This document shows positions 1-61,484 of a stretch of DNA of 64,000 nucleotides, piece by piece. Both the position numbers and the translations under genes were made by a program. Numbering within the stretch: the stretch's first letter is position 1; every line of letters begins with the position of its first letter. This DNA is from Candidatus Shapirobacteria bacterium (GTDB lineage: Bacteria; Patescibacteriota; Microgenomatia; 0-14-0-10-38-17): assembly GCA_018052565.1 (NCBI GenBank), contig JAGPNC010000001.1:45512-109511 (forward strand), written 5' to 3'. The notes beneath the pieces are model-generated. The model made no database searches, was not told the origin of the DNA, and saw nothing but the letters and a program-made list of their open reading frames with translations.

Positions 1-45
1 CAATTTTAACTTTTGACTTTTGACTTTTAACTTTTGATTGTCCAT

Positions 46-1752: not shown

Positions 1753-1933
1753 ACCTTCTTATAGTAAAGAAATTATGTTAGAATGTCAATCAAGGAAAGT
1801 TAAAAGTCAAAATACAAAATTCAAAATTCCAAGTTAAAATTAAAAAGCAAAACAAGAGGCGCCTAACTTTCAACCAGAAATTTCAACTTTTGAATAATTA
1901 AATTTCTTACTTTTAACTTTTGCCTTTTGAATT

Positions 1934-5161: not shown

Positions 5162-7792
5162 ATGGTCAAAAAACAATGGGTCTTTTCTTTTAACGCTGTT
5201 CCCAAAATTGACAAAAATTTGTTGGGCGGCAAGGGAGCCGGGTTAGCGGAGATGACTAAAATTGGCTTGCCCGTACCTCCCGGTTTTATTATTACCACAG
5301 ACGCCTGTAAAGCTTATCAAAAGAATAAAAAATTACCACCAGACCTTTGGCCACAGATTATAAGAGAACTTAAAAAATTAGAAGAAAAAACGGGAAAGAG
5401 ATTTAATGATGCTAAAAACCCTCTATTGGTCTCGGTTCGTTCCGGCGCTCCCGTTTCCATGCCCGGGATGATGGACACCGTTTTAAATTTAGGTCTAAAC
5501 GATGAAACCGCCAAAGCATTAGCTAAAAGAACAAAAAATTCCCGCTTTGCCGCTGATTCCTATCGCCGCTTTATCCAAATGTTTGCCAACATCGTTAAAA
5601 GTGTACCACTGAAAAAGTTTGAGGATGTTTTAGAACAAGAGAGAGAACGCCATGGCTTCAAAAACGATACCGAATTCAGCGCCCAGGACTTAGAAAAAAT
5701 CATCCGACGTTATCAGCAAATTTATCAAGAAGAAACGGGAGAAAAATTTCCTCAAGATCCCTTGGTTCAACTCCAAGAAGCAATTAAGGCTGTTTTCAAT
5801 TCTTGGGAAAATAAAAGAGCCATCGATTACCGCAATTTTAATAAAATCCCCCATCATTTGGGTACCGCAGTTAATGTTCAGGCAATGGTTTTTGGCAACA
5901 TGGGAGAAAAATCGGCCACGGGAGTTGCTTTTACCCGCAATCCTGCTATCGGCAAGAAAAAACTTTATGGCGAATTTCTAATCAATGCCCAAGGCGAAGA
6001 CGTTGTCGCCGGTATTCGTACTCCCCGGCCAATTAAGGAGCTGGCCAAGGCAATGCCTAAGGCTTATGAAATCTTGCAAAAAATTGCCCAAACTCTGGAA
6101 AAACATTTCCGCGACATGCAAGACATCGAATTTACTATTGAAGAGGGGAAATTTTATATTCTCCAAACCCGTAGCGGTAAACGAACTCCTGAAGCAGCAG
6201 TAAAAATTGCTTACGATATGGTTTTGGAAAAGCTTATCAGTAAAGAAGAGGCGATCATGCGTCTTGATCCTGATCAGATTAATCAATTGCTTCACCGCCA
6301 CATTGATCACGACGCCCGGCTGCAAGTTATTGCTAAAGGGCTAGCTGCCTCTCCCGGTGGCGCCAGCGGCGAGGTAGTCTTAGACGCTGATAAAGCCGAA
6401 AGCGAGGGCCAGCTTGGCAATCAGGTGATTCTTGTCCGCCCGGAAACTTCTCCTGATGATGTCCATGGTGTTATTTGGGCTCAAGGAGTTTTAACCAGCC
6501 GGGGCGGGACAACTTCTCATGCGGCCGTGGTGGCCCGGGGTTTAGGCCGACCCTGTGTTTGCGGGGCAGAGGAAATAAAAATTGATTTGGAAAAGAGCCA
6601 GTTTACTACTCGCGGCCAGACAGTTAAGGAAGGAGAAGTAATTACTCTTAACGGATCAACAGGCGAGGTCATCTTGGGTGCCGTGCCGATGGTTGAGCCA
6701 AAACTAAGCCGGGAGCTAAAGACCGTTCTTTCTTGGGCAGACGAGATAGCAAAATTAAAAGTCTATACCAACGCCGATTATCCGAGGGATGCCAAAACAG
6801 CCCGTGATTTTGGCGCCAAAGGCATTGGCCTTTGCCGAACGGAACATATGTTTATGGAGCAAGAACGACTACCACATGTCCAGAAAATGATTTTGGCGCC
6901 AAATGCTCAAAAGCGAGAAGAGCCGCTTGAAAAAATAGGTCAATTCCAAAAAGAAGATTTCGTGGGCTTATTCCGCATTATGGATGGCTCGCCGGTAATC
7001 ATTCGCCTAATTGATCCTCCTTTGCACGAATTTCTGCCAAAGGAAAAAGAAATTAAAGAAAGCTTGGAGAAGGCCAAAAGTAAAAAAGAAAAAGAGCATT
7101 GGGAGGCAATTTTAACCGCTCGCAATAATTTGCACGAGGATAACCCCATGCTGGGCTTACGCGGTTGCCGACTGGGAATTTTAATGCCCGAAATTATTAG
7201 AACACAAACCCGCGCCATCCTCGAAGCAGCCCTAAAGGTTAGAAAAGAAGGCAAAAGAGTAAAACCACAAATTATGGTGCCGCTGGTAGCCTTCAAAGAA
7301 GAGCTTGCCCTTGTTAAAAAAGAGATCATCGACGAGGCAGAAAAGGTTTTTGCTAAAGAAGGAGAGAGGCTGGAATTCAAAATTGGCACTATGATTGAAT
7401 TGCCACGCGCCGCCCTTAGAGCAGGGGAAATTGCCGAAGAAGCGGAATTTTTTTCTTTTGGCACTAATGACTTAACTCAAACCACTATTGGTATTTCCCG
7501 CGATGATGCGGAGGGAAAATTCTTAGCTTCTTATCAAAAATTAGGCATTATTAAAACTGATCCTTTCCAAACATTGGACCAAGATGGGGTAGGGGAATTA
7601 GTCGAAATAGGGACAAGAAGAGGCAGAAAAATAAACCCCGATCTTTCGGTAGGCATTTGCGGCGAGCACGGCGGCGATCCCGAAAGCATTAAGTTTTGCC
7701 ACCAAACTGGCCTAAATTATGTTTCCTGCTCTCCTTACCGTGTCCCCGCTGCCCGTCTTGTCGCCGCCCAAGCAGCAATTGGCGGGAAATGA
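5162..7792 (+). CDS. ppdK: Pyruvate, phosphate dikinase
   Basis: N-terminal ATP-grasp (GGKGAGLAEM). Central phospho-His domain (GGTTSHAAVVARGLGRPCV). C-terminal PEP-utilising TIM barrel (CGEHGGDP). 876 aa. Confidence 0.9.
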   Translation: MVKKQWVFSFNAVPKIDKNLLGGKGAGLAEMTKIGLPVPPGFIITTDACKAYQKNKKLPPDLWPQIIRELKKLEEKTGKRFNDAKNPLLVSVRSGAPVSMPGMMDTVLNLGLNDETAKALAKRTKNSRFAADSYRRFIQMFANIVKSVPLKKFEDVLEQERERHGFKNDTEFSAQDLEKIIRRYQQIYQEETGEKFPQDPLVQLQEAIKAVFNSWENKRAIDYRNFNKIPHHLGTAVNVQAMVFGNMGEKSATGVAFTRNPAIGKKKLYGEFLINAQGEDVVAGIRTPRPIKELAKAMPKAYEILQKIAQTLEKHFRDMQDIEFTIEEGKFYILQTRSGKRTPEAAVKIAYDMVLEKLISKEEAIMRLDPDQINQLLHRHIDHDARLQVIAKGLAASPGGASGEVVLDADKAESEGQLGNQVILVRPETSPDDVHGVIWAQGVLTSRGGTTSHAAVVARGLGRPCVCGAEEIKIDLEKSQFTTRGQTVKEGEVITLNGSTGEVILGAVPMVEPKLSRELKTVLSWADEIAKLKVYTNADYPRDAKTARDFGAKGIGLCRTEHMFMEQERLPHVQKMILAPNAQKREEPLEKIGQFQKEDFVGLFRIMDGSPVIIRLIDPPLHEFLPKEKEIKESLEKAKSKKEKEHWEAILTARNNLHEDNPMLGLRGCRLGILMPEIIRTQTRAILEAALKVRKEGKRVKPQIMVPLVAFKEELALVKKEIIDEAEKVFAKEGERLEFKIGTMIELPRAALRAGEIAEEAEFFSFGTNDLTQTTIGISRDDAEGKFLASYQKLGIIKTDPFQTLDQDGVGELVEIGTRRGRKINPDLSVGICGEHGGDPESIKFCHQTGLNYVSCSPYRVPAARLVAAQAAIGGK

Positions 7793-7849: not shown

Positions 7850-7968
7850 TATAAAACTAATAGAAAGTTGAAATTCGAAATTTAAAAGCAAAACAAAAAA
7901 CTTTTGACTTTTAGCTTGTCCGCCAGCTGGCGGATTGAATTTTGACTTTTTAATTTTGAATTTATTAT
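7850..7968. repeat. Oligo-A/T-tract palindrome with a central GC hairpin GTCCGCCAGCTGGCGGAT (ppdK-gyrA spacer)
   Basis: GAAAGTTGAAATTCGAAATTTAAAAGCAAAAC...CTTTTGACTTTTAGC-GTCCGCCAGCTGGCGGAT-TGAATTTTGACTTTTTAATTTTGAATTT. Confidence 0.6.
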
Positions 7969-7969
7969 C

Positions 7970-10567
7970 ATGTCTTCCTCCGATAATCAACAAATCAAAA
8001 CCGTCCCTATTGCGGGCGAAGTTAAGAAGGCTTATCTTGACTACGCCATGTCGGTCATTGTTTCCCGGGCTCTTCCCGACGTTCGCGATGGTCTAAAACC
8101 GGTTCACCGCCGTATTCTTTACGCCGCTTATCAACTCAACCTTTCCCATACTTCCCCCTTCACCAAAAGTGCCAAGTTGGTCGGCGAAGTTTTGGGAAAA
8201 TACCACCCCCATGGCGATGCCTCTGTTTACGACGCCCTCGTTCGTTTAGCCCAGGATTTTTCGATGCGCTATCCCTTAATCCAGGGGCAGGGAAATTTTG
8301 GCTCCATCGATGGCGATCCTCCCGCCGCCATGCGTTATACCGAGATAAGATTGGCAAAAATTGCCCAAGAGATGCTAAAAGATTTGGAAAAGGAAACTGT
8401 TCCCACCTTGCCAAATTTTGACGGTACTCTTGCCGAACCGCAATATTTGCCCGCTCTTCTGCCAAATCTCCTTCTTATGGGCTCAGAAGGAATTGCCGTT
8501 GGCATGGCCACCAAAATCCCTCCCCATAACTTGGGTGAAGTAGTGAGAGCTTTAATTTTAATGATCGAGAAAGGGAGAGCGACTTTCCCCCAAAGCCATC
8601 CCTTGAGCCAAAAAAATATTGGCCAGAAAGAAAAAGAAAGTTTTTATCAGAAACTTTTAGAAATGCCTTTTGAGGAAGTGGCCAATTTTTTGCCTAATTT
8701 TGAAACCGAAGCCAACCTTGATGATATTCTGACAAAGATTAAGGGGCCGGATTTTCCCACCTACGGTGCTATTTTTGGCAAAAACCAAATCCGGGAAACA
8801 TATCAAAAAGGGAGAGGAACCATCTTAGTTCGCGGTAAAGCCGACATTGAAGAATTAAGAAAAAACCGCCTGGCCATCATTATCAGCCAGTTGCCATATC
8901 AGGTTAATAAGGCGCTTTTAGTCCAAAAAATTGCCGATCTTATCCGCGAACAAAAAATAAAGGGAGTAGGGGATCTGCGCGATGAGTCCAGCCGGGAGGG
9001 AATTCGCATTGTTTTAGAACTGCAACGCCAAGCAAAACCGCAAGCCATTCTTAATAATCTTTATAAAAAAACCGAGCTGGAAACCACTTTTCCGGCGAAT
9101 TTTGTCGCCCTTTTAAACGGCGTCCCCCAAACGCTGGGCCTGCGGGAAATTCTTCTTCACTACGTGAGTCATCGCCAAGAAATTGTCTTCCGCCGCACCA
9201 TCTTTGATTTGCGTGCCGCTCAAGGACGGGCCCATATTTTAGAAGGTCTCAAAATTGCCCTAGATTATCTCGACGAAGTTATTAAAACTATCCGTAGCTC
9301 AGCCAACACCACCGAAGCCCAAAAAAACTTGATGGAAAAATTCTCTCTCAGCGCCCTGCAGAGTGAAGCCATTCTTAATATGCCTTTAAAAAGGCTCTCT
9401 AAACTCGAGCGGGAAAAAATTGAAGAAGAATATCAGCTTATCCAAAAACAAATCAAAGATTATAAAGCCACATTAAGTGAACCTGAAAAAATTCTCAACA
9501 TTATCAAAGAAGAACTTAACTATCTTTTGGAAAACTACGAGGATAGCCGCCGCACCCAAGTTTTTGCTTCTCTCCCCGGCGAGTTGGCGGAAGAAGATTT
9601 AGTGGCTGATGAACCGGTAATTATCACCATTACCAAACAAGGCTATATTAAGCGTTTGGCCAAGAACGTTTATCACGCTCAAAGACGAGGCGGCAAAGGC
9701 ATTACCGGCATGACCACCAAAGAAGAAGATGAGGTCAAGCAAGTTTTAAGCGCCCAAACCCATGACCAGATTATTTTCTTTACCAATCTTGGCCGGGCTT
9801 TCCGTCTGCCCATTTGGGAAATTCCTGAGGGCAATCGCCAAAGCCGTGGTAAAGCAGTCGTTAATTTAATTAATTTAAACGGTGAAGAAAAAGTAGAGGC
9901 CACTTTGATTATGCCCAAAGAGAAAAGCGAAGAAAAAAAATATCTAATCCTTACCACCAGAAAGGGAATGGTTAAAAAAAGTTTGCTTGAAGAATTTAAT
10001 AAAATCCGCGCCAACGGTTTGGTGGCCATTAAGCTTCGTCCCGGCGACCAACTCTGTTGGGCCAAAACCGCGGGAGAAAACGATCATCTTCTTTTGGTAA
10101 CCGCCTTTGGGCAATCGATCAGATTCCCCCAGCAAGAAATTCGCACCACTGCCCGTGACACCATCGGGGTAGGAGGCATCCGCCTCAAAAAAGGCGATTA
10201 CCTTGTTGGCGCAGAAATCATCCCCCCTAAGGTAGCCATAAAAGACCGCCGCCGCAAACCCTACCAGCGGCTTCTCCTGGTAACACAAAAGGGCTTAGGC
10301 AAGCAAACCGATCTTGATGCTTTCCCTCCTCAGCATCGTTATGGCAAAGGAGTAAAGGCTGCTAGGATTAACGAAAAAACCGGTCTCGTCTGTGAGATAA
10401 AAATCATTTACGAAAAAGATCAGGATCTAATTATCACCTCTCAAAAAGGCCACTTAATTAAACTCCCCCTGAAGAACATTCCCGTTTTGGGAAGAAACAC
10501 CCAAGGAGTTATACTGATGCGTTTTAAAAACGAGGGTGATCAAGTTGCCAGTGCGGCCATTGCCTAA
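7970..10567 (+). CDS. gyrA: DNA gyrase subunit A
   Basis: [27 protein letters not shown] with the active-site Tyr region. C-terminal beta-pinwheel repeats. Confidence 0.9.
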
Positions 10568-10837
10568 GCAGTATTCGTTGCCATCCTGAACTTACTCAGT
10601 GGACAAAATAAGATTTGGGACCTTTCTGCAATAGACAAATTTCCAAATTCCAAATCACAAATCACAAACAAATTCTAAACTCCAATTTTCATTTTCTAAG
10701 CAAGAAAAAATAAACGATCTATTTTGATAGTTTCGAATTTAGAATTTTGGTCATTAGAGATTATTTGGAATTTGTTATTTGTAATTTGAGATTTTTGGGT
10801 TTCAATTTCGCTATTCCCGTAGTGAATGCCTTTTATT

Positions 10838-11788: not shown

Positions 11789-12666
11789 AAAAAATTTTTT
11801 AGATAAAGTATTTTTTCAAAAATTTATTCTTTTGGTCGGGTAGGGGAAGAAAAGAAAAATTTTCTTTCCTCAACTGAGTGTAAGAGTAATTATACTCAGT
11901 TAAGGGTCATTATAACCAAGAGCCAATTTTTTGTCAAGTTTTAGGAAATATAGCCAAAGTTAGACCTTCGCTAAATAGGCCTAAAACGGCTGAAAAAGGA
12001 AAAGACGATAAGCTGACCACCCTCTTTTTATAGAATTTGAGAACAAAATCGTCATCTTTCTCTCATCTTTCTTGAGGAAGTCCCCCGCACAAACCCTGCA
12101 GCACCTACAAGTTCACACTAACAGATATCAATCGCAGCAATTTAACAATTTTTGTTTTAAAAAAGTAAAAAAAAGGGGAAGAAAAAATAATTTCAAATTA
12201 ATATTTAAATTCTTGTAAAATAATAATCAATTATTTCGGTTAATTCCTTTAAAAATACCAAAGCCAGAAGAAGATTTGTCCTCCTCCGAAGTTTTCCACA
12301 AAAGTATATCAAACAATATCATTAGCAGCTTAAAGCTTTAATTGCTAAAAGTGTGAAAAAATGCTTTTTAATTTCGTGAAAACTATGGGATAGAAACTAT
12401 AGGGTATATTATTATGGGATAATAAGATGCGACCTGCCCTTCTCCTTCACTCCCCTACCCTAAAATTCCCCAAAATATCATTTTTATAAAAGCTATTATT
12501 AACTTAAAACTCAAAGTGCAAAAGTGAAAATTATAAGTAAAAATTTATTTTAACTTTACCTTAACTTTTGGTTTTATTTAAGGTCGGCCTAAACTGAACC
12601 CGCTATTAGCAAAAAGACCTCATCGCTACTTTATACTTAATACCTAATACCTAATACATGCTTTTT

Positions 12667-13483: not shown

Positions 13484-14245
13484 CTAAAAGTTGCTGAAAA
13501 CGCTTTGAACATCATCATGCTCTTCGAGGCGGGAAAGAAACTCCGTTACTTTCTCTCTCTTTTGAGGATCGCTAATCATTAATGGTACTTGAGGGAGAAA
13601 GACTAACGATGAGGAAAAAACTGAAAATCCTTTTTCTTCAAGATCGGCCACGGTTCTGGCTAAAGATTCTTTCGCCACTGTCAACCTTATTTTCCCCTCT
13701 TCTTCCTCAACATCTTCGACACCGGGGAAATCCATCAGGAACAAAACCTGCTCTTCAGTTTTCTCTTCTTTCTTGGGAGCCAAAAAAATTTCCCCTACTT
13801 GGCGGAAATTATAAGAAACAGCACCGGGAGAAGCCAACGACCCGCCACTTTTTTCAAAAATATTTTTAAGCTCTTGGGTAGTCCGTTGTCGATTATCTGT
13901 GACCGCATTCACAATTACCGCCACCCCCTCGGGGCCATAGCCCTCAAATTGTAACGAAGAGAAAGAGCCGTCCTTTTTCCCCCCGGCCCGGCTAATGGCT
14001 CGTTCAATATTACTCTTGGGCATATCAGCTCCCCGTGCTTGCTCGATTGCCAAACGCAGGCGAAAGTTAGCATTGGGGTCTGTTTCCCCTCCCCCCTCAA
14101 TAACGGCCACGCTAATTGCCCGCGAGAGCTTGGAAAAAACCTGCCCGCGCTGTTTGTCCTTCGTTTCTTTTTGGTGTTTTATAGTTGCCCACTTTGAATG
14201 ACCAGACACGGCTTGAAAAAATTTAAAAATTATTACTAAATGCAA
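13484..14245 (-). CDS. yebC: YebC/PmpR family DNA-binding transcriptional regulator
   Basis: GHSKWATIKHQK...NANFRLRLAIEQARGADMPKSNIERAI are signature motifs. Confidence 0.85.
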   Translation of the reverse strand: MHLVIIFKFFQAVSGHSKWATIKHQKETKDKQRGQVFSKLSRAISVAVIEGGGETDPNANFRLRLAIEQARGADMPKSNIERAISRAGGKKDGSFSSLQFEGYGPEGVAVIVNAVTDNRQRTTQELKNIFEKSGGSLASPGAVSYNFRQVGEIFLAPKKEEKTEEQVLFLMDFPGVEDVEEEEGKIRLTVAKESLARTVADLEEKGFSVFSSSLVFLPQVPLMISDPQKREKVTEFLSRLEEHDDVQSVFSNF

Positions 14246-14340
14246 ATCTCAAAATGCAAAATGAAAAAGAAAAAATGTAAAAAGAATTTTTAAGTTTTAC
14301 ATTTTCATTTTGACTTTTGCATTTTGATTTTTTGATTTCA
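14238..14340. repeat. Oligo-A/T-tract palindrome (hairpin-forming) intergenic element
   Basis: Left arm AAATGCAAATCTCAAAATGCAAAATGAAAAAGAAAAAATGTAAAA. Right arm TTTTACATTTTCATTTTGACTTTTGCATTTTGATTTTTTGATTTC. Short loop. Confidence 0.65.
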
Positions 14341-15162: not shown

Positions 15163-16619
15163 TTCTTTATTCTCACCTTTGTCCCGCCAGCAGTATCTTC
15201 CAAAAGATAGCCCGCTTTTTCAATTTCCTGACGAATTTTATCCGCTTCTTCCCACCGCCTTTCCTCTCTTAGCTTCTCCCTTTCTTCCACTAATTCTTTA
15301 ATTTTTGAGTAATTTTTATTACGCGATTTTAATAACTCTTCAGCTTCATTTTTTATCTTTAAGCCAAAAATGTGATCAAAATCAACAACTAAAAATATCT
15401 TCTCCTCTCTTTTCAATTTTTTATCTTTAAAAACTTGCCAAAGCAAAGCCAGTGCACGAGGAGTATTTAGATCATTTTCCAAAAAACGGCTAAATTCTTG
15501 TTGATATTCTTCTGTTCTCCTGCTCTTCTCTTTTTTTTCTCCTTTCTCTAACAAATCAGCCATTTTTTCTATTAACCCCTGATAGGCTTTTTTTGCTCCT
15601 TCTAGGGCCTCCCAGGTAAAATTCATCTTCCTCCGATAATGCGCCGTTAAGAAAAAATAGCGAAGCGGCATCAGGTTTTTATACCCTCTTTTTGTCAAAT
15701 CACTAAGGCTATAAAAATTGCCTAAGCTCTTGCTCATTTTTTTGCCTTCGATCTCTAAAAAGGCGAAGTGTATCCAATAGTTGACAAACCTTTTTCCTGT
15801 TGCCGCCTCTGATTGAGCAATTTCATTAGTATGGTGAACGGGAATATGGTCAATGCCACCTGTGTGAATATCAATCGTCGCAAATTTTTCTGGGAAAAAC
15901 TGGCCATCAACAAAGCAGGGGGTAAGATATTTCATTGCCATTGCCGAGCATTCAATATGCCAACCCGGGAAGCTTTTTTCTCTCCAAGGGCTTTCCCACT
16001 CCATCTGCCGTTTTACCCCCCTAGGGCTGAATTTCCACAGGGCAAAATCCGTCGGATTTTTTTTGTAAGGATTGGGTTCTACCCGCGCTCCCTCTTTCAG
16101 CTTCTCCTTGGAAAGGTGGGCTAATTTACCATAATCACTTATCTTGCTGGTGTCAAAATAAATCCCATCGGGTGTTTGATAAGTAAAGCCTTTTTTCTCT
16201 AATTCTTTCACCAAAAGAATCATTTCCTGAATATTCTCTGTTGCTCTCGGCGCTATTGACGGCGGGGAGATATTTAACTTTTCCAAAACCCGAAAAAATT
16301 CTTTCTCGTAGCGCCTAGCTATTTCCCAGGCGTTTTCCTTCTTCTCCCGAGCTCTTTTCTCCAATTTGTCCTCGCCCAAATCACGATCGCCAGTAAGGTG
16401 GCCTACATCAGTGATATTCATCACCTGGAAAGGTTCAAAGCCCCAGTATTTTAGAGTCCTTAAGAGGATATCGGTATTCACATAAGTACGCATATGGCCA
16501 AGATGGGGGTGGTCATAGACAGTGGGGCCACAACTATAAATCCTCACTCTCGGCGGGAAAAGCGGCCTAAATTTTTCTTTCCTCCTACTTAGGTTATTGA
16601 AAAAAAGAAGGTCTTTCAT
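15159..16619 (-). CDS. cysS: Cysteinyl-tRNA synthetase
   Basis: HIGH-type motif (YDHPHLGHMRTYV). KMSKS. Zinc-binding Cys/His. Class I fold. Confidence 0.9.
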   Translation of the reverse strand: MKDLLFFNNLSRRKEKFRPLFPPRVRIYSCGPTVYDHPHLGHMRTYVNTDILLRTLKYWGFEPFQVMNITDVGHLTGDRDLGEDKLEKRAREKKENAWEIARRYEKEFFRVLEKLNISPPSIAPRATENIQEMILLVKELEKKGFTYQTPDGIYFDTSKISDYGKLAHLSKEKLKEGARVEPNPYKKNPTDFALWKFSPRGVKRQMEWESPWREKSFPGWHIECSAMAMKYLTPCFVDGQFFPEKFATIDIHTGGIDHIPVHHTNEIAQSEAATGKRFVNYWIHFAFLEIEGKKMSKSLGNFYSLSDLTKRGYKNLMPLRYFFLTAHYRRKMNFTWEALEGAKKAYQGLIEKMADLLEKGEKKEKSRRTEEYQQEFSRFLENDLNTPRALALLWQVFKDKKLKREEKIFLVVDFDHIFGLKIKNEAEELLKSRNKNYSKIKELVEEREKLREERRWEEADKIRQEIEKAGYLLEDTAGGTKVRIKK

Positions 16620-17111: not shown

Positions 17112-17214
17112 CCAAAAACTAATTTATTTTATGGCTAAAAGCAAATCATCGCTCAATTATTATAAAATTCCAAATAACCCGCCTGCCCCACACTGTATAA
17201 GGCGGGGCCGGCTG

Positions 17215-17412
17215 GCCCTGTACCAAAATGGTACGGGGCTGGCGGATTGAATTTTAACATTTAACATATAGTCCTGTCTACTGTGGGCAGGTTTGCGATT
17301 TGCGTTTTGAATCCATTTATAATTTTGACTTTTGGCTTTTTCCGCCAGAGGCGCAGGCCAGAGGCCTGTCAGCCTTGGGCAGAGACCCGCCTTGGGCGGG
17401 AACTTTTAAATT
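17215..17412. repeat. Cluster of GC-rich hairpin modules within A/T repeats (hypothetical-recR spacer)
   Basis: GGCCGGCTGGCCCTGTACC-AAAATG-GTACGGGGCTGGCGGATTGAATTTTA, then CCGCCAGAGGCG, GGCCAGAGGCC, CCCGCCTTGGGCGGG. The last module is identical to the one at 53745-53792. Confidence 0.6.
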
Positions 17413-17418
17413 TCTTTT

Positions 17419-18042
17419 TTAGTATTCTCTCCTTCCCTCCAGCGCTCGTTCTAAGGTCAGCTCATCAGCATACTCCAAATCCGCCCCTACCGGCAATCCC
17501 TGCCCTACTCGGCTCACCCTCACTTTATCAACCCTCTCAGCATTAACTTTCTCTAACTCTTTCTTAATATACATCGCGGTGGCTTCTCCTTCCAAAGAAG
17601 AGCCTGTCGCCAAAATAACCTCTCTTATCGTCTCATTTTCCCTTACTCTTCTAATTAGTTCGGCAATCTTAATCTCCTCGGCGCTAATATTTTGCAAGGG
17701 ATTAATTACCCCTCCCAAAACATGATAAACCCCTCGATAATGGTTCGTCCGCTCCAAAGAGAGAATATCCAATGGTTGTTCCACCGCGCAAATAATACTC
17801 TGGTCTCGGCTCAAATCAGCGCAAATTTCGCACGGATCCGTTTCTCCAATGTTATGGCAAACAGAGCACTCTTTGGTTTCCTTTTTCAAATTTACCACTG
17901 TTTCGCCAAATTGTTCCAAAAACTCCTGAGGAGTATGCAAAAGATAAAAGGTAAGTCGCGCCGCTGTTTTGGGACCAATGCCTGGTAATTGCTCAAAAGC
18001 CTCAATAAGATTATTAATCGCCTTAGGAATTTTCATTTTCAA
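17419..18042 (-). CDS. recR: Recombination protein RecR
   Basis: HhH (LPGIGPKTA). C4 zinc finger (CSVCHNIGETDPCEIC). Toprim domain. Part of the classic dnaX-ybaB-recR cluster. Confidence 0.9.
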   Translation of the reverse strand: MKMKIPKAINNLIEAFEQLPGIGPKTAARLTFYLLHTPQEFLEQFGETVVNLKKETKECSVCHNIGETDPCEICADLSRDQSIICAVEQPLDILSLERTNHYRGVYHVLGGVINPLQNISAEEIKIAELIRRVRENETIREVILATGSSLEGEATAMYIKKELEKVNAERVDKVRVSRVGQGLPVGADLEYADELTLERALEGRREY

Positions 18043-18319: not shown

Positions 18320-19805
18320 AAATTTTTTCTGCCAAGCCTAGTAGGTCTTCTTCTTTGTCTTCAACTTTTTCTTCGCTTCCTTTCACTTGCCTTCGCTTGA
18401 ATTTGGGTGAAAGTTTGAAAAAAACTTTTGCTTTTATCCCCAAAACTTCCTCCACTGCTTTTTCTACAATTCGCCGATTTAATTCCTTTTCCAAGCATTC
18501 TTTGTGAAAGGAATAGTAAACGCCAATCGTTAAAGACTGCTTGTCAAAAGAAAGCGGTTGTGCTGATTTTAAAAAAGCTTCTACCGAGTGGTTTTGTGGC
18601 CGTACTTTAGTTAAAATATCCTGCCAAATCTTATCATCGATGCTAATCCCCTTCTCCTCATCAGTGTTTTCTTCCTTTTTTTTGTCTTTATTTGCTCCTT
18701 TTTTTTCTTCCTTTTCTTTGAAATTTTTAAAAGAAGAGTCATCGCCTTCTTTTGCTCCCAAAAGCGACGCTGCCTTTCCTACTGCCACCTCAAGGGCCAA
18801 AATCGGGACGTTCGTTTGTTTTGCCTGCCTTAAGGCTTGAGAAAAAATATCAACCAACGAAAAAAGCTGATCAGAAGAAAAAGTGCTTTTTTTGCCATCA
18901 GGCAATCCCCAAAGTCCGTGGAGTAAAAGACGCAACTCCCTTAAAAGTTGTTCCAAATAAGCCTGAATATCTAAACCCCTTTGACTGATTTCTTCAACCA
19001 TTGATACTGCCTCCCCAAGTTTCCCTGCCGCTAAAAAATCAAGAAGCAATGTTGGCGCCAAAGAGTCTTCCATGCCAATTATCCTTTCCACCATCTGTCG
19101 GTCAATTTTTGGACCAAAAAAAGAAAGTTCCTCTAAGAGCTTTTGAGCATCCCGAAAGCTCCCGTCTGCCAACCGAACAATTTCTTCCAGAGCTTCTTCT
19201 TCAATTACCAATTTTTCCCCCTCTGCTGCTTTTTTTAAAGCGCCCATCACTTCTTCCGCCGTTGCCCTATTAAAATTAATCCGTACGCAACGGGAAAGAA
19301 TTGTTTCCGGTAGTTTCTCGGGGTTAGTAGTGCAAAGAATAAAAATCACTTTTTCCGGCGGTTCTTCCAGCGTTTTCAAAAGGGCATTAAAAGCCTCGGG
19401 AGTAAGCATGTGCACTTCATCAATAATATAAACTTTATACTTGCCTCGACTTGGAGCTAAATTAACCTTCTCCTTGAGATCACGAATATCGTCAATCCCC
19501 CGGTTAGAAGCGGCATCAATTTCTAAAACATCCAAAAAATCCCCCCTCGCAATCGCTTGGCAAACCTCACATTGACCACAAGGTTCTCCTTTTTTAGCAT
19601 TGGGGCAATTCAGGCTTTTGGCCACCAACCGTGCCATCGACGTTTTTCCCACCCCTCGTGGCCCCGCGAATAAAAAGGCATGAGGGAGATGATTAGACTG
19701 CAAAATCCTCCCTACCTTATCGCGTACCTCTACTAGGTCAAAATCGGCAATTTTTTGGGGACGATATTTCAGGTAAAAAGCCATAAAGAAAGTATTAAGT
19801 ATCAA
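18297..19805 (-). CDS. dnaX: DNA polymerase III subunit gamma/tau
   Basis: Walker A GPRGVGKTS. Zn module CPNAKKGEPCGQCEVC. DEVHML. SRC. Confidence 0.9.
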   Translation of the reverse strand: MILNTFFMAFYLKYRPQKIADFDLVEVRDKVGRILQSNHLPHAFLFAGPRGVGKTSMARLVAKSLNCPNAKKGEPCGQCEVCQAIARGDFLDVLEIDAASNRGIDDIRDLKEKVNLAPSRGKYKVYIIDEVHMLTPEAFNALLKTLEEPPEKVIFILCTTNPEKLPETILSRCVRINFNRATAEEVMGALKKAAEGEKLVIEEEALEEIVRLADGSFRDAQKLLEELSFFGPKIDRQMVERIIGMEDSLAPTLLLDFLAAGKLGEAVSMVEEISQRGLDIQAYLEQLLRELRLLLHGLWGLPDGKKSTFSSDQLFSLVDIFSQALRQAKQTNVPILALEVAVGKAASLLGAKEGDDSSFKNFKEKEEKKGANKDKKKEENTDEEKGISIDDKIWQDILTKVRPQNHSVEAFLKSAQPLSFDKQSLTIGVYYSFHKECLEKELNRRIVEKAVEEVLGIKAKVFFKLSPKFKRRQVKGSEEKVEDKEEDLLGLAEKIFGGEENV

Positions 19806-20067
19806 GTATTATTTATTAAGTATAATTCAAAAGCTAGAATAAAAAAAAGATAAAATTACCGAATTGCTCCTCCTAGGCGGGATATCTCGAAAGGAGATTG
19901 CGAGTGATGTGTCACCGTCATCCTGACGAAAGCCAAGATCTTTCCTAAAACCAAGGAGAAACAAATTCTGAAATTTTCATTAGAATAACAAACCCCAAAA
20001 AACAACACCTGCTGTTAACCCCTAGCAATTTGGCCTGCCTGCGGCAGATCTCCCGCAGGGAGATAAT

Positions 20068-20489: not shown

Positions 20490-20680
20490 GGGCAGGACAA
20501 AAAAATCAAAAGTTAAAAGTCAAAAGCTAAAAGTTCCCGCCCGAGACGGATCCGCCGTTTTGGGCGAATAGATTTAAGCTTTGAGATTTGACATTCGAGA
20601 TTTCAGCTCGGCTCGGCATTTGCGTTTTGAGGCCCCTGTGTGACATTCAAGATTTGAGCTCTTTTAATCACCGCAAAGCT
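20490..20680. repeat. Composite A-tract/GC-hairpin intergenic repeat (ybeY-yqeY spacer)
   Basis: AAAAATCAAAAGTTAAAAGTCAAAAGCTAAAAGTT-CCCGCCCGAGACGGATCCGCCGTTTTGGGCG ... repeated GAGATTTGACATTCGAGATTTCAGCTCGG / GACATTCAAGATTTGAGCTC units. Confidence 0.5.
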
Positions 20681-22511: not shown

Positions 22512-22516
22512 AAGGA

Positions 22517-22716
22517 AAATGCAAAACTTAAAAATTAAAAAGCAAAATGAAAGAGAAAAAATGCAAAATTAAAAGTCAGCAACTCGTAACATGTTAAAAA
22601 CAAAGATGGAACTACTCTCTAATTACAAGTTACCAGTTATCGGTTATAACTTGCTAGTCTTTTTACATTTTAAATTTTCATTTTTACTTTTGAGATTTGC
22701 ATTTCGATCTAACTAC
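22517..22716. repeat. Oligo-A/T-tract inverted repeat pair with a 90-bp spacer (upstream of rseP)
   Basis: AAAATGCAAAACTTAAAAATTAAAAAGCAAAATGAAAGAGAAAAAATGCAAAATTAAAAGTC ... TTTTTACATTTTAAATTTTCATTTTTACTTTTGAGATTTGCATTTCG. Confidence 0.55.
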
Positions 22717-26853: not shown

Positions 26854-26968
26854 AAATTTTTTGACAAAAGATAAACTTTAAATCGATAAGCCCTCATTCT
26901 GACACCATCTCCCTTTACAAAAGTAGAATTCAAAAGCTAAGAGTTTTTTACTTTACTTTTGACTTTTA

Positions 26969-31314: not shown

Positions 31315-31371
31315 AAAAAATAAGACTTGTTTTAAACTTTTTACTTTTGACTTTTGGCCTTTAATTATTAT

Positions 31372-32601: not shown

Positions 32602-32792
32602 TGCTGTAATACTACCATCTTGGCCAAAATTGAAATCAAATAATCTTAATTAAAAAGTCAAAATTTTTAGTGCAAAATGCAAATAGCAAAGAGCAAAACC
32701 TAGATCAAAGTTCAAAAATGTTCTAAAGTTTTGGTCTTTGAGCTTGGTTTTGCATTTTGATTTTTTTATTGCACTTGATATTTAATACTTTT

Positions 32793-35445: not shown

Positions 35446-35494
35446 TGCTTAATTTTTTATAAAGTTATCTTAGCTTAAGACAAACACTGTCTTT

Positions 35495-35640
35495 TGAATT
35501 ATTCTAATTATCCTAATTAATCTAATTTCCAAAAGAAATCCCAAATGCTAAAATCCCAAATCCAAAATGGTTTCTTAACCTTCTTTTTTTTAGGGTTTTG
35601 GTTTTGGGTATTTTTTAGGTCAATTAAAATAATTTGAAAC
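35495..35640. repeat. Palindromic MITE-like intergenic repeat, copy C (between mreB and mreC)
   Basis: GAATTATTCTAATTATCCTAATTAATCTAATTTCC...GGTTTTGGGTATTTTTTAGGTCAATTAAAATAATTTG. Confidence 0.65.
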
Positions 35641-35756
35641 AACTTTTGTCCTAATTACTAATTACTTATTACGAGTCACAAACTACCGGCTACGAGTTAC
35701 TTGCTACACTACTCTTTTAATCTAATCTCGTAATCTAATAATCTAGTGGCTTTCGC

Positions 35757-36794: not shown

Positions 36795-36915
36795 TATATA
36801 AAGTATAGCATCGGAAAGAAGAAGTAAGAAATGGTATAATTAACTATAAACAATCGCCAAGTGCTTTTTCGACAAAAATTATGATTTTTCTAATACTTAA
36901 TTTTGTCTACTAGCA

Positions 36916-37008
36916 GAAAATTCAAAAGTTAAAATTCAAAATTAAAACAGAAACTTTTAACTTTTTACTTGGAATTTTACATTTTCATTTTTGAATTTTG
37001 AATTTTTC
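36916..37008. repeat. Oligo-A/T-tract palindrome upstream of tRNA-Ala
   Basis: AAAATTCAAAAGTTAAAATTCAAAATTAAAAC ... TTTTACATTTTCATTTTTGAATTTTGAATTTTTC. Confidence 0.65.
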
Positions 37009-37052
37009 ATCATACTTAATACCTAATACTTAATACTTGATACTTTTTTTCT

Positions 37053-37129: not shown

Positions 37130-37317
37130 CATAAAGAAACAAAAGGTATTGCCAAATAGCCTTCCAAACTAGCTGATATCCTCTATAAAAAATGATAAAG
37201 CTAAGGATAGGCAGTAATTACCGACCTCCAATTAACATAATAACTTCGGGGGGCAAACAGGATCTTCCTTCCGTGCTGTTGTTGACGATTTTTATTAAAA
37301 AATTGTAGAATAAGTTT

Positions 37318-38376
37318 ATGAACGATTATAGCGACTACAAAGAAAGAAAATATTTATCTTCTACAGAAGCAGCAAGATATTTAGATATCTCTGTAGGAAT
37401 GTTACATAATTTGGTCAGGGTAAATAAGATTAAATGTTTTATCGCCGGAAGTGGGCAAAAACGCTTTAATCTAAAGAATTTAAAAAAATATGAAACGAGT
37501 AAACCAAATAAAAAAGTAAAAGAGAAAAAAAAAGAAATATTAATAGAAAATATAGTCAACATTAATAATACTACTCAGAAAATCTTTATTAAAAATGCGA
37601 TGGATATGAGTGAACTAAAAGATGACTCTGTCCATTTAATGATTACTTCGCCTCCTTATTTTGACGCAAAAATGTACACCAAAAAACCTATTAAAAATGA
37701 TTTAGGCAATATACATAATCTTGATGAATGGTTTAAAAAAATTGGCATTGTTTGGAAAGAAGTTTTTAGAGTTTTACAACCGGGGAGAAAAGCATTTATA
37801 AATATTATGAATTTGCCTATAAGAGATAATGGCGGTTTTAAATCTCTAAATTTAGTCGGTAGGACAATAGATACAATGGAAAAAATAGGTTTTATTTTCA
37901 AACGAGATATTGTGTGGCACAAAACAAACGGGGTGAGAGCAAATTTCGGGACCTATCCATACCCTGGCGGTATTCTAATAAATAATATGCATGAGTTTGT
38001 TCTGGAATTTAATAAACCAAACAAGAAAGGATTTAATAAATATGGACATTTGACAAAAGAGCAAAAAGAAGCATCCAGGCTCGATAAAGAATTTTGGCTT
38101 TCTATAAAAAACACTGATGTCTGGTTAATGAAGCCGCGAAACAGTGGAGATAGCCGAACCCATGTTGCTCCGTTTCCTTACGAGTTACCATATAGAATCA
38201 TCAAGGCGTTTACTTTTATCGGAGAAGTGGTCTTAGATCCGTTTCTTGGCAGTGGCACCTCGCTAGAAGTAGCCGCAGATTTAAAAAGAAATGGCATAGG
38301 ATATGAAATTGTCCCTGAAATTGCTGAAACTGCAATTAAAAATTTGAATCAACATCAGAATAAACTATTTACTTAA
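37318..38376 (+). CDS. DNA methyltransferase (beta-class N4-C/N6-A, SPPY motif) with N-terminal excisionase-type HTH
   Basis: Motif IV TSPPYFDAK is followed much later by motif I DPFLGSGTSLEVA, the beta-class order. N-terminal residues 14-60 resemble an HTH_17/MerR-like DNA-binding domain. About 30% GC, so AT-rich. Confidence 0.8.
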   Translation: MNDYSDYKERKYLSSTEAARYLDISVGMLHNLVRVNKIKCFIAGSGQKRFNLKNLKKYETSKPNKKVKEKKKEILIENIVNINNTTQKIFIKNAMDMSELKDDSVHLMITSPPYFDAKMYTKKPIKNDLGNIHNLDEWFKKIGIVWKEVFRVLQPGRKAFINIMNLPIRDNGGFKSLNLVGRTIDTMEKIGFIFKRDIVWHKTNGVRANFGTYPYPGGILINNMHEFVLEFNKPNKKGFNKYGHLTKEQKEASRLDKEFWLSIKNTDVWLMKPRNSGDSRTHVAPFPYELPYRIIKAFTFIGEVVLDPFLGSGTSLEVAADLKRNGIGYEIVPEIAETAIKNLNQHQNKLFT

Positions 38377-38390
38377 TTAATAATAAAAAT

Positions 38391-39515
38391 ATGGTAATCG
38401 ATGCAAAAACAATATATGCCCAATCGAGTGATATTAAATCTAGAACATATCTAGAGTATCGCAAAGATATGAAACAAAAAGCTATTGCTGAGTTAGAAGT
38501 TTTACCGTGGCTTAAGAAAAAAATTCGCCAAAAGGATAAAAAAGCCGTTGTTGAAAAATTCGGAGGCGATAAGTTTATTTGGTTTTTAAGAAAAGGGGGA
38601 ATTACGAGAGAACCAGATTTTGTGGCAAAATATTCAAATAAGGAAACTAAATACGTTGAATTTCAATACGCAAAAAAAGAATTAAGCGCTTATGATTTTA
38701 AGATTTCTAAAATTGCTCCAAAAAACAGAACACTAAACAAGAGGGCCCCTAAAGACGATACAGAAATTTTATATGTCGTTAAGCCAACCTATGAGTTCGC
38801 AATTTTAAGTCCTGACTGGATAATTAAGAATTCAAAACAAGCTATTGCTTCTGCTTGGGGTAATGCTCCGGTATTCAGGGTACCAAAAGAAAAATTTAAA
38901 AAAGTTTTACAGAAAGATAAAGAATTGAAAGCTGTTTGTGACTTTATAGATAAAAAAATTTCGATCTTGGATTTCCAACATAAAACCATTGAAATGGAAG
39001 AGAACAAGCTTTCTTATCTTTTGCAACAAGTTATAGATGAAGAGAAAATCCTAAAAATAATTCCAAAAACCATAGATGGATTTTTTAAAGTTTGCTTTAT
39101 GCTCGACCACATCGAAAAGATTCCAACTAATGCAAATTTGTGGCTAGTATATATTTTATCCTTTTTAGACCAAAGTTTAAATTCTTATGAACTCTTTCGG
39201 TTAATTTATAGCTTAGATTTTCTTTATCAAAAAGTTGAATTAAAAACAAATGAACTTAGCAGATTAGTAAGGGGATTAAAAGAAATTAATAAGCAAGTTG
39301 AACGATTTTCAAATCCCGATGGTTCTTTTCGGTCAGATAAAACCATCGCTCCTCTGGAAGATACAAGATATTCACTTTTCATAATAAATATCCTTGAAGA
39401 TTTGACCCAAGATGTTCTGTATTACTATGGGAACAATATCAACCTAAGACCTATCACTAGGATATACCAAACCGTTCCGCAAATAAATAAAACTTTTCAA
39501 TTCGTCATGCAATAA
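38391..39515 (+). CDS. Uncharacterised protein, candidate restriction endonuclease partner of the upstream methyltransferase
   Basis: Starts 14 bp after the MTase stop on the same strand, with the same AT-rich composition. Possible PD-x9-ETK (PD-(D/E)xK-like) segment REPDFVAKYSNKETKYVEF. No other recognisable domain. Confidence 0.35.
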   Translation: MVIDAKTIYAQSSDIKSRTYLEYRKDMKQKAIAELEVLPWLKKKIRQKDKKAVVEKFGGDKFIWFLRKGGITREPDFVAKYSNKETKYVEFQYAKKELSAYDFKISKIAPKNRTLNKRAPKDDTEILYVVKPTYEFAILSPDWIIKNSKQAIASAWGNAPVFRVPKEKFKKVLQKDKELKAVCDFIDKKISILDFQHKTIEMEENKLSYLLQQVIDEEKILKIIPKTIDGFFKVCFMLDHIEKIPTNANLWLVYILSFLDQSLNSYELFRLIYSLDFLYQKVELKTNELSRLVRGLKEINKQVERFSNPDGSFRSDKTIAPLEDTRYSLFIINILEDLTQDVLYYYGNNINLRPITRIYQTVPQINKTFQFVMQ

Positions 39516-39659
39516 ATTCGCCAAGAGGGGAAAGATATCGAGAAAATTATAAAAGAGAATAGTCATAAAATAAAATAGACCCAAGCTTAGCGTTTTAACA
39601 TCGATTCGACAAGTTCTGTAATTTTTTATCCTTAATACAATGCAAACATCACTAAGCTC

Positions 39660-49455: not shown

Positions 49456-49480
49456 CGCGCAAAATTATAAAATGATAAAA

Positions 49481-53744: not shown

Positions 53745-53792
53745 TTTTTAACTTTTTCCGCCAGAGGCGGACCCGCCTTGGGCGGGAAATTT
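53745..53792. repeat. GC-rich hairpin module (CCGCCAGAGGCGG + CCCGCCTTGGGCGGG) flanked by A/T tracts
   Basis: Same module occurs at 17340-17410. Related cores at 61391-61405 and 20538-20560. Confidence 0.6.
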
Positions 53793-53804
53793 TAACTTTT
53801 GACT

Positions 53805-61441: not shown

Positions 61442-61484
61442 TTAATACCTAATACATAATACTAAATACATCTCTATTCTACTA

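Follow-up and report, generated by a model that had tools for sequence, protein, structure and literature searches.

Among the long simple-sequence repeats (SSRs) of many bacteria, heptamers are reported as the class most strongly over-represented, and polymerase slippage has been proposed as their origin (Mrazek et al. 2007, as summarized in PMC4679880 and PMC4692102). In Xanthomonas and Nostoc, ~185 heterogeneous (GGGANTN)n arrays, typically of four units, are 89-93% intergenic and 70-75 form convergent inverted pairs; the arrays are variable between close relatives, show a preference for convergent (16%) versus divergent (7-8%) spacers and are mostly transcribed, and no function was found for them despite testing (Rehm et al. 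2015, PMC4692102). The present analysis concerns arrays of A- and T-rich heptads that recur in the spacers of a 64,000-nt stretch of DNA from a Candidatus Shapirobacteria bacterium (assembly GCA_018052565.1, contig JAGPNC010000001.1, positions 45,512 to 109,511 of the forward strand; this whole stretch is referred to below as the window). It is well supported that these are lineage-specific heptameric arrays of fast turnover, most of which form quasi-palindromes with a fixed polarity and which lie in transcribed leaders and trailers.

Repeats with partly similar properties have been described elsewhere. For Calothrix PCC 7601, three tandemly repetitive heptanucleotides are cited in PMC4692102. 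The TAACTGA repeats, which are distributed patchily across phyla in marine Beggiatoaceae, cyanobacteria and Bacteroidetes, comprise 2-6 intergenic units located mostly a few nt upstream of starts that lack a Shine-Dalgarno sequence, and binding of S1, Csp or CsrA has been proposed for those of the Beggiatoaceae (MacGregor 2015, PMC4679880). Effects on mRNA 3' ends and on termination are described for repetitive extragenic palindromic (REP) sequences and for BIMEs, the interspersed mosaic elements of bacteria (PMC2817692). Nothing was found in the literature on heptamer repeats of Patescibacteria, and the same is true of Patescibacteria terminators and promoters.

A heptameric repeat family in the intergenic DNA

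The window is chromosomal DNA, and the M50 protease and YebC that it encodes are 100% identical to NCBI proteins from Candidatus Shapirobacteria (Microgenomates). It has a G+C content of ~41%, is ~85% coding and carries an ordinary housekeeping gene content, with 9.9 kb of intergenic DNA (~15% of the sequence) and 54 kb of coding DNA. In the intergenic part, the starts of A-runs (at least 3 A) are spaced preferentially at 7, 14 and 21 nt, with 51, 37 and 30 pairs, respectively, compared with ~9-22 at other distances, and the starts of T-runs show 42, 28 and 19 pairs at the same three spacings; in the coding DNA, the spacing of both kinds of runs is flat, without these peaks. The spacers contain 21 arrays in which 4 or more units follow one another at 6-8 nt, as compared with 0.88 ± 0.87 (maximum 4) in dinucleotide shuffles, and arrays of at least 5 units number 11, as compared with 0.10, while the whole of the coding DNA contains one array of at least 4 units and none of at least 5. 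In 10 of the 30 spacers, an inverted repeat was detected that matches at 19 or more of 24 positions and has a loop of no more than 120 nt, the shuffled sequences giving 0.22 ± 0.45 (maximum 2). This shuffling is the control that a preliminary description of the window, made from its letters alone, had named as capable of refuting its elements, and the elements withstood it. The repeat family is real, non-random and fast-evolving.

The consensus of the unit is AAAA-[G/T]-[T/G]-[C/T], with AAAAGTT, AAAAGTC, AAAATTC and AAAATGC as its commonest forms. Units of 5-7 nt had been described initially; the main unit is 7 nt long (72 of 112), with 6 nt in 20 and 8 nt in 7 of the remaining cases. Its conservation is limited to the A-run and a weak preference for a pyrimidine at position 7 (C in 40 of 72). 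Beside the period of 7 nt, Tandem Repeats Finder reports higher-order periods of 14 and 21 nt, and the Hamming distance between adjacent units (1.83) is smaller than that to units of other arms (2.39), which together is the signature expected from tandem duplication. The arrays comprise 4-9 units in both orientations and form arms of 24-68 nt, in keeping with the lengths given in the preliminary description. Tandem 7-nt units, excess length, a bias to non-coding DNA and inverted pairs, which are features of the heptameric SSR class, are all present.

The individual elements are collected in Table 1. All 12 loci that had been listed as palindromic hold arrays, and nine of them are indeed pairs of an A-type and a T-type arm; those at 1-45, 31325-31365 and 53780-53800 are single arrays, however, and the arrays at 12506-12533, 17288-17420 and 49461-49505 were missing from that list. 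The one long centre of ~90 nt that had been noticed is present at 22575-22657. Rfam covariance models detected only six tRNAs and an L10 leader at gathering scores in the window, and the heptad elements in it matched no known RNA family.

Table 1. Heptad arrays and the GC hairpins associated with them in the window (pairs are named by the start of the A-type arm and the start of the T-type arm; types refer to the + strand unless stated otherwise)
Position	Feature	Spacer or gene	Pair	Remarks
1-39	Single T-type array, 5 exact heptads TTTTAAC/TTTTGAC	pilB		A-type on the pilB sense strand; 7 nt past the stop codon of pilB (46-48); truncated at the window edge, any partner would lie outside the window
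1796-1855	A-type arm, 8 units	pilB/holB	1796/1898	Just 3' of a rightward extended -10 box, TGTTAGAAT, at 1776-1784
1898-1942	T-type arm	pilB/holB	1796/1898	Ends 7 nt 5' of the probable holB start (GTG 1949)
7864-7898	A-type arm	ppdK/gyrA	7864/7935	
7918-7935	GC hairpin module GTCCGCCAGCTGGCGGAT (+)	ppdK/gyrA		Nested between the arms; sole intergenic canonical terminator-like match within 1-20 kb
7935-7966	T-type arm	ppdK/gyrA	7864/7935	Ends ~4-7 nt 5' of the gyrA ATG (7970); no Shine-Dalgarno sequence behind the arm at this start
10637-10690	A-type arm	gyrA/xerC-like (convergent)	10637/10719-10808	CAAATCA/CCAAATT flavour
10719-10808	T-type arrays	gyrA/xerC-like (convergent)	10637/10719-10808	ATTTGGA/ATTTGTA flavour
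12506-12533	Single A-type array, 4 units			
14238-14282 (+ strand)	A-type arm	rluA/yebC	14238/14285	Forms the U-rich 3' arm on the sense (-) strand, with 29 nt left to the yebC start (GTG 14209)
14285-14338 (+ strand)	T-type arm	rluA/yebC	14238/14285	A-rich 5' arm on the sense strand; whole element 14238-14338 downstream of a conserved extended -10 box, TGGTAAAAT, at 14425-14417 (-)
17288-17341, 17401-17420	T-type arrays around GC hairpins (17341-17400)			A-type on the sense (-) strand; 17288-17420 directly follows a gene end; extended -10 box TGTTAAAAT next, at 17259-17251 (-)
20501-20535	A-type arm, AAAAGTY x5	yqeY/ybeY	20501/20569	
20536-20566	GC hairpin	yqeY/ybeY		
20569-20610	Degenerate T-type arm, AGATTTN units	yqeY/ybeY	20501/20569	
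22516-22574	A-type arm, ~8-9 units	M50 protease	22516/22658	21-nt higher-order period; abuts the M50 protease start (22511/22484)
22575-22657	Centre, 83 nt			Carries its own short-period repeats, CAAGTTA CCAGTTA TCGGTTA TAACTTG
22658-22704	T-type arm		22516/22658	Whole element 22516-22704 downstream of a conserved TGGTAAAAT box at 22793-22785 (-)
26918-26941, 26944-26968	Short pair of arms	Directly past the thyX stop	26918/26944	Behind a conserved TATAAT box at 26973-26968 (-)
31336-31362	Single array, 4 units	dprA/topA (57 nt)		A-type on the sense (-) strand
32650-32717	A-type arm	PBP/dprA	32650/32729	GCAAAAN flavour
32729-32776	T-type arm	PBP/dprA	32650/32729	32650-32776 follows the PBP stop on the sense strand and precedes the dprA box TGGTAGTAT, the end of which is 7 nt from the dprA ATG
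36917-36950	A-type arm	mreB/tRNA-Ala	36917/36952	Downstream of a conserved rightward box, TGGTATAAT (36832-36840)
36952-37010	T-type arm	mreB/tRNA-Ala	36917/36952	Followed by ATACTTA repeats and tRNA-Ala (37053)
49461-49505	Single array, 8-nt period, AAAATGAT x6.6	nusG		T-type on the sense (-) strand; reaches the nusG start (49455)
53757-53800 (+)	Two GC hairpins (53757-53787) and a T-type tail of 2-3 units, TTTTAACTTTTGACTTTTTT	PEGA-domain gene		Resemble together a conventional terminator; the PEGA-domain gene upstream ends at 53657

Polarity, RNA folding and position relative to promoters

In all ten spacers of the window that contain arrays of both types, the A-type array precedes the T-type array on the + strand (p = 0.002). 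The same order is found in 4 of 4 cases in L001, a Patescibacteria metagenome-assembled genome that is syntenic with the window and has a TopA 83% identical and coding DNA ~80% identical to those of the window. A metagenome pattern scan with (AAAAGTN)3AAAA returned at least 120 contigs (774 kb, G+C 0.21-0.66), with no close relative of the window among the 120 loci listed; among the matches listed, adjacent opposite arrays stand as A-then-T in 20 cases and as T-then-A in 3 (p = 5e-4), which brings the overall count to 34 versus 3. As the arrangement is symmetric, the A-then-T order holds on the - strand as well. In the same listed matches, the A-type array lies beside the end of a same-strand open reading frame (ORF) in 41 cases and beside an opposite-strand ORF in 12 (p = 8e-5). 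Of the single arrays in co-directional spacers, 13 versus 3 are A-type when read on the sense strand, and paired elements occupy 9 co-directional, 2 convergent and 0 divergent spacers. The Xanthomonas repeats share this preference for convergent over divergent spacers. This fixed polarity is the strongest clue to mechanism. The A-then-T order alone leaves a U-rich 3' arm and tail after the hairpin on either strand, and that is the layout of a bidirectional intrinsic terminator. Neither the polarity nor the 7-nt unit nor the link to the known heptameric SSR class had been part of the preliminary description.

The right arm had been regarded as the reverse complement of the left one, and cognate arms are in fact 72-88% complementary, but pairing is about as good in several registers offset by 7 nt. 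The score of the high-scoring segment pair (HSP) is 13.9 for cognate arms compared with 12.0 for non-cognate ones (p ~0.05, 12 loci). Given that cognate arms pair barely better than non-cognate arms, locus-specific palindromes were rejected, and the "palindromes" are instead inverted arrays of one degenerate unit family with a faint locus-specific flavour.

The expectation that the elements would form long A:U hairpins as RNA was borne out for five of the eight elements tested, which fold beyond the level of shuffled sequences (z -3.2 to -5.4). These are the elements at 14238 (-28.3 kcal/mol, z -4.6, with U5AAAU6 next), 7864 (-31.5 kcal/mol, z -5.4), 32650 (-32.8 kcal/mol, z -4.1), 10637 (z -3.7, with the folded stretch covering part of the T arm only) and 26918 (z -3.2), whereas those at 20501 (z -1.4), 36917 (z -1.15) and 1796 (z -0.5) remain near the shuffle level. 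Elements do occur in convergent, tandem and nominally divergent spacers, as had been stated; the two poorly folding elements at 1796 and 36917, however, represent the divergent cases and amount to leader insertions behind a rightward promoter.

Consensus GC-rich terminators are not enriched in the 40 kb scanned (26 versus 30.0 ± 6.4, and 31 versus 24.2 ± 5.0 in shuffled sequence), and all the matches of the scan lie inside ORFs, with the exception of 7918-7935. With terminators at the shuffle level and their matches in ORFs, the heptad hairpins are the only conspicuous structures in the spacers. A G+C-rich stem followed immediately by a U-run is absent from the elements save at 7918-7935, the other stems being A:U-rich with U-rich sequence after them. 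Conventional terminators were therefore rejected as a general description, the scan being at shuffle level and flagging 7918-7935 alone among the elements. A terminator would be expected downstream of a transcription unit, and this is compatible with the positions of 10637 (convergent spacer), 32650 (upstream of the dprA box), 17288-17420 and 53757-53800. It is not compatible with those of 1796, 14238, 22516, 26918 and 36917, all of which have a promoter box upstream. In that, the earlier remark that the elements are "not only terminators" proved sound, with five pairs downstream of -10 boxes, four of these boxes being conserved in relatives.

The idea that the phased A-tracts bend the DNA did not survive. 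The tracts are coherent at a period of 7.0 (0.57-1.00) and incoherent at 10.5 bp (0.09-0.37), and a 7-bp phase places successive A-tract bends ~240 degrees apart, which cancels them every three units (21 bp). Curved DNA was thus excluded as a general explanation, as the tracts are not helically phased. For the same lack of helical phase, it is hardly credible that curved DNA or UP-element-like A/T tracts stimulate the neighbouring promoters, even though the pilB arm directly precedes a match to a TTGACA-17-TACTAT promoter and A/T tracts are generally favoured upstream of promoters: most of the pairs lie downstream of the promoter box, and one occupies a convergent spacer.

Of the 102 matches to an extended -10 box (TGnTAnWnT, often TGGTAAAAT), 38 fall in the intergenic 15% of the sequence; positions not given in Table 1 are 32617-32609 (-), 36810-36802 (-) and 57562-57554 (-). 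Several are conserved in relatives, which include, besides L001, four more distant Shapirobacteria (L004, L006, L007 and L008; 55-60% protein identity) and two contigs covering the yebC region (L129, with a YebC 85% identical, and L130, with a YebC 83% identical). TG(G/A)TAAAAT just past the rluA stop is common to the window, L130, L004, L006 and L007, while TGGTAAAAT past the frr stop, TG(G/A)TATAAT before tRNA-Ala and GGTATAAT at the thyX stop are kept in the window and L001. Four pairs, at 14238, 22516, 36917 and 26918, have one of these conserved boxes upstream, and the pair at 1796 follows the window-only box TGTTAGAAT (1776), which places the five pairs inside the 5' leaders of yebC, the M50 protease gene, tRNA-Ala, glyA and holB. 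Outside leaders are 10637-10808 in its convergent spacer, as well as 32650-32776 and 17288-17420, which extend between a gene end and the next promoter box. To judge from the sequence, the lineage may widely use promoters that are independent of a -35 box. The T-type arms do hold -35-like motifs (TTGACT, TTGCAT, TTGAAT), for which a -10 at the right spacing is plausible at pilB, yebC and the M50 protease gene and impossible at gyrA and holB, an outcome that is inconsistent between genes.

The T-type arrays end ~4-7 nt from the starts of gyrA, holB and nusG, none of which has a Shine-Dalgarno sequence. A sequence resembling one was found in ~12 of 55 genes, and TANNNT ending 5-9 nt before the start was found in 15 of 55, against a background of 8.8 (maximum 14). 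Gene starts concerned are, for example, 1752(-), 36794(-), 32601(-), 37318(+), 57547(-), 54353(+) and 49455(-). The TANNNT motif and the rarity of Shine-Dalgarno sequences hint at many leaderless or very short-leader mRNAs.

These positions raise the question of whether the elements act as a 5'-leader device, in which the U-rich array would be a landing site for the ribosome, S1 or a cold-shock protein and the A array an anti-leader, with the long duplex tuning translation or with an RNase III cut setting the mature 5' end. Stems of 30-45 bp would suit RNase III. Consistent with that, T arrays lie at ~4-7 nt from the starts of gyrA, holB, nusG and possibly the M50 protease gene and 29 nt before that of yebC, these genes lack Shine-Dalgarno sequences, pairs are found downstream of conserved promoters, and the TAACTGA repeats likewise sit just upstream of starts without ribosome-binding sites. 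In the yebC leader, moreover, the T array is present in the window, L129 and L130, and the A arm was seen in the window only, L130 being without it and the L129 contig being cut there. Such a device is nevertheless unlikely, as the 18-29 nt next to the start codon stay unpaired in the predicted folds, pairs are also found where genes converge (10637) and, at 32650, upstream of a promoter and not in a leader, an A-type array abuts start codons in other phyla, and the polarity is maintained even where no start codon follows.

Turnover between genomes and nested repeat modules

L001 contains 14 heptad arrays in 22 kb, largely in other spacers than the window, and at 5 of 7 orthologous spacers the two differ in presence, absence or size. 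The window elements 22516-22704 and 36917-37010 are absent from the orthologous L001 spacers, and the dprA/topA spacer with its array at 31336 is gone altogether, the genes abutting in L001 with a single base between the aligned blocks. Conversely, L001 has a large element between the M50 protease gene and yqeY, where the window has none. The thyX/glyA and PBP/dprA spacers carry elements in both genomes, with diverged sequence, the one in thyX/glyA of L001 being a 270-nt element with a GC module. One subfamily occupies three different spacers, namely window 14238-14338 (rluA/yebC), L001rc 560-700 (M50/yqeY) and window 22658-22704; the first two match in both arms, with 29/29 and 34/38 identities, and most other similarity between elements is at the level of the unit only. 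On this sequence evidence, subfamilies clearly appear to have been copied between spacers. A genome-wide family, as was suggested initially, is supported, and so is its REP-like behaviour, the elements being dispersed, hairpin-forming, variable between relatives and copied from spacer to spacer. Common termini or target-site duplications were found neither at the arm ends nor in the flanks nor in the comparison of empty with filled sites (against L001), and a miniature inverted-repeat transposable element (MITE) was rejected on these grounds.

In the yebC leader of L130 (407-532), the T array stands alone and runs up to the ATG, and contig L129 ends (positions 1-44) inside a T array 44 nt before yebC. 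The close relatives that were found are represented by contigs of only ~1.2-1.6 kb. In practical terms, heptad arrays can break metagenome assemblies, as in L129, and they may fragment those of this lineage. A difference in gene content was noted beside tRNA-Ala, where the stretch of lowest G+C in the window (33%, 37130-39677) contains a DNA methylase gene (37318-38376) and an ORF of 374 aa (38391-39515), both absent from the otherwise syntenic L001; this stretch is probably an inserted restriction-modification cassette.

The more distant Shapirobacteria have few AAAA-type arrays and show the same succession of array, centre and inverted array with other units, namely ATTGCT-type units in L006/L007, GTAACTA with a GC hairpin in L004 and AATTTCT in L008. 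Behind TG(G/A)TAAAAT in the yebC leader, an array-flanked hairpin is found in the window, L004 and L006/L007, and the sequences share nothing. In other phyla, AAAAGTN arrays nested with other heptamer arrays in inverted pairs were observed on contigs L104, L124, L033, L036 and L100, the nested units including GGAGTTA/TAACTCC, ATGGTAA/TTACCAT, GCCTTTT and the cyanobacterial CCCCAGT. The layout seems to be widespread and independent of the unit. A further observation in L004 concerns two ~130-nt GC-rich and apparently structured repeats that start with TTTCAAGATAGG and occupy the frr/M50 and recR-side spacers (9860-9990 and 15440-15570). Copies of the TTTCAAGATAGG motif are found ahead of start codons, too, in both L004 and L006 (L006 17830-17850).

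The yebC leader, with the same promoter box and a hairpin with arrays built from unrelated units, is the basis for proposing that the module of array, centre and inverted array is a sequence-independent structural leader device that would have been rebuilt repeatedly from simple repeats. The proposal has a low probability. If selection does keep the structure and not the sequence, it would amount to a new evolvable regulator of reduced genomes at the RNA or DNA level, either an attenuator or insulator that can be tuned or a platform for a periodicity-reading protein, and the polarity would be its functional signature.

A further possibility is that of operator arrays at the DNA level, on which a small omega-like protein would polymerise, one dimer per heptad, or to which a nucleoid-associated protein would bind, the two arms giving a complex of two-fold symmetry. 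The strictly contiguous 7-bp units (coherence 0.57-1.0), their number of 4-9 in both orientations, the polarity fixed about a centre and the occurrence in every type of spacer are in line with such a complex, for which complementarity of cognate arms would not be needed. It is, however, very unlikely to account for the arrays. Conservation does not go beyond the A-run and a weak pyrimidine preference at position 7, units of 6 or 8 nt are common (27 of 112), and the recurrence of the same architecture with unrelated units in relatives and distant phyla would demand a different protein each time, whereas slippage and self-complementarity are independent of sequence. No candidate protein emerged, although no search aimed at one was made.

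The centres of the elements also contain repeated sequence. GC hairpin cores lie exactly between the heptad arms at 7918-7935, at 20536-20566 and at three L001 sites. The module TCCGCCAGCTGGCGGATTGA has full copies at window 7918-7938, L001rc 6152-6171 and L001rc 8338-8357, the two L001 copies being at non-orthologous sites; all three copies, in two genomes, are nested between heptad arms, in agreement with the early suggestion that GC-hairpin modules insert into an A/T shell. At window 17201-17250 and 57706-57750, the module stem CCGCCAG...CTGGCGG is interrupted by an inserted GC-rich hairpin. A second family of GC modules, CCGCCAGAGGCGGACCCGCCTTGGGCGGGAA and its relatives, is found at 53757-53787, 17341-17400 and 20536-20566 (88-100% identical, 18-42 nt) and is flanked by heptad arrays.

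Other repeat families were observed in the window as well. A second dispersed family consists of AATTATTCT x3, AAATCCC x3, a centre and the inverted ATTAGAATA x3, at 2659-2830, 35491-35745, 57659-57842 and 62469-62642, with copies 90-94% identical over 35-61 nt. A third, of ATACTTA/ATACCTA/TAATACA heptamers, is located at 12633-12657, 19790-19823, 37012-37045 and 61441-61471, with two of its copies following a T-type arm and directly preceding dnaX and tRNA-Ala. The junction TTTTGAATTATACTTAATA is identical at window 19814-19832 and L001rc 675-693.

Origin, possible activity and relation to known repeats

The model that is favoured here, although tentatively and with less than even confidence, combines a putative origin of the repeats by slippage with a putative activity as leaky hairpins that terminate, attenuate or insulate transcription. 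Arrays would probably be seeded at the A- and T-tracts of simpler terminators, following which replication slippage would grow and shrink them, and they are copied between spacers. The elements lie in transcribed spacers, either in 3' trailers past stop codons or in 5' leaders behind conserved extended -10 promoters, and in the RNA a pair is predicted to form a long but imperfect A:U hairpin, in some cases with a GC module as its cap, and with U-rich sequence after it. This anatomy is that of a bidirectional leaky intrinsic terminator or attenuator, by which read-through between neighbouring transcription units could be partly stopped or insulated, and the U-rich 3' arm might double as the Shine-Dalgarno-less leader of the next gene.

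Several observations weigh against this model. The chief difficulty is posed by the five pairs behind promoter boxes in leaders, including those of housekeeping genes, which an efficient terminator would silence, so that termination would have to be weak or conditional. Internal mismatches interrupt the A:U-rich stems, one element only passes the conventional terminator scan, and two pairs fold no better than shuffled sequence. Single arms also occur (31336, 17288-17420, 49461). The nearly equal pairing of cognate and non-cognate arms (p ~0.05) implies no clear selection for pairing, and the absence of elements from the same spacers of L001, together with the retention of the T array only in L130, implies that the copies are dispensable.

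A different interpretation, which is nearly as likely as the favoured one, holds that the arrays are neutral or mildly selfish simple-sequence repeats produced by slippage, for which 7 nt would be the favoured unit, with no dedicated function. Template switching at quasi-palindromes and recombination would copy them across centres and to other spacers, and they would persist where the harm is small, in leaders and trailers. Their polarity would then have to result from constraints, U-rich sequence being required beside starts without a Shine-Dalgarno sequence or A-rich sequence being located past stops, or from seeding by the tracts of old terminators. The rapid gain and loss at ~80% coding identity, with every examined copy dispensable, fits this interpretation well, as do the degenerate units, the variable arm lengths and centres without conserved termini, and the weak advantage of cognate over non-cognate pairing. 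The same holds for the recurrence of the layout with unrelated units in L006 (ATTGCT-type) and L004 (GTAACTA) and its presence in many phyla (GC 0.21-0.66), for the contig of a relative that ends inside an array, and for the heptamers of Xanthomonas and Nostoc, in which tests revealed no function. It does not predict, however, the near-absolute A-then-T polarity across phyla (34 versus 3) or the bias in orientation to the ends of upstream ORFs (41 versus 12). It is likewise at odds with the recurrence of array-bearing hairpins with unrelated units in the yebC leader of four or five lineages, and with a subfamily that is 85-100% identical across genomes whose coding DNA is ~80% identical.

Heptameric intergenic repeats are reported as over-represented in many bacteria, and the window adds an example from the Candidate Phyla Radiation, which lends itself to testing by virtue of its cross-phylum polarity, its defined position relative to promoters and starts, and sister genomes in which single elements are present or absent. 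Should the hairpins terminate or insulate, they would be a candidate way of separating transcription units in a genome with almost no conventional terminators; if they are functionless, they provide a clean case of slippage-driven growth of spacers in a reduced genome.

Compared with the known systems, the elements share with the GGGANTN and GGGGA(C/T)T arrays of Xanthomonas and Nostoc a heterogeneous 7-nt unit with an invariant run and variable positions, an intergenic location, inverted pairs capable of forming stem-loops and variability between relatives. They differ from them in the A/T-rich unit AAAAKKY, for which no G-quadruplex is possible, the units of Xanthomonas and Nostoc being G-rich, in the Candidate Phyla Radiation host, in the GC hairpin modules nested in the centre, and in that several elements are nearer to the downstream start than to the upstream stop and lie behind conserved promoters. 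With the Calothrix heptanucleotides, which we take to be the short tandemly repeated repetitive (STRR) sequences of unit CCCCAGT, they have in common the dispersed intergenic tandem heptamers in many copies and several unit families per genome, and on the cyanobacteria-like contig L036, AAAAGTC arrays stand beside CCCCAGT arrays. STRR arrays are more uniform in unit sequence, and no description of a fixed A-then-T palindromic polarity was found for them in the literature. The T-type arrays adjoin the starts of gyrA, holB, nusG and yebC much as the TAACTGA repeats adjoin theirs, but the latter are nearly all direct repeats, with a single inverted set in 170, whereas inverted pairs dominate here.

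The remaining comparisons are with systems of a different construction. REP sequences and BIMEs, the effects of which on mRNA 3'-end stability and termination are documented, are likewise dispersed, extragenic, hairpin-forming, transcribed and variable between relatives. A REP is, however, a single palindrome of 20-40 nt with a conserved sequence and a REP-associated tyrosine transposase (RAYT), in contrast to the arrays of 7-nt units without conserved termini or core described here, and no RAYT or IS200-like transposase was detected among the 20 window ORFs scanned against Pfam. A bidirectional intrinsic terminator has the same succession of A-tract, hairpin and T-tract, and some elements possess GC cores (7918, 20536), but their arms of 24-68 nt are periodic, their A:U stems contain mismatches and several of them lie in 5' leaders. 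The ribbon-helix-helix omega protein of inc18 plasmids binds heptad iterons, contiguous 7-bp units in direct and inverted orientation that form arrays of 7-10 units. The contiguous 7-bp units in both orientations are reminiscent of these, yet the omega heptads have a base-specific consensus and occur at few plasmid promoters, while here the A-run alone is conserved and the distribution is chromosome-wide. Taken together, the elements are best explained as the Candidatus Shapirobacteria version of the known heptameric intergenic simple-sequence repeats.

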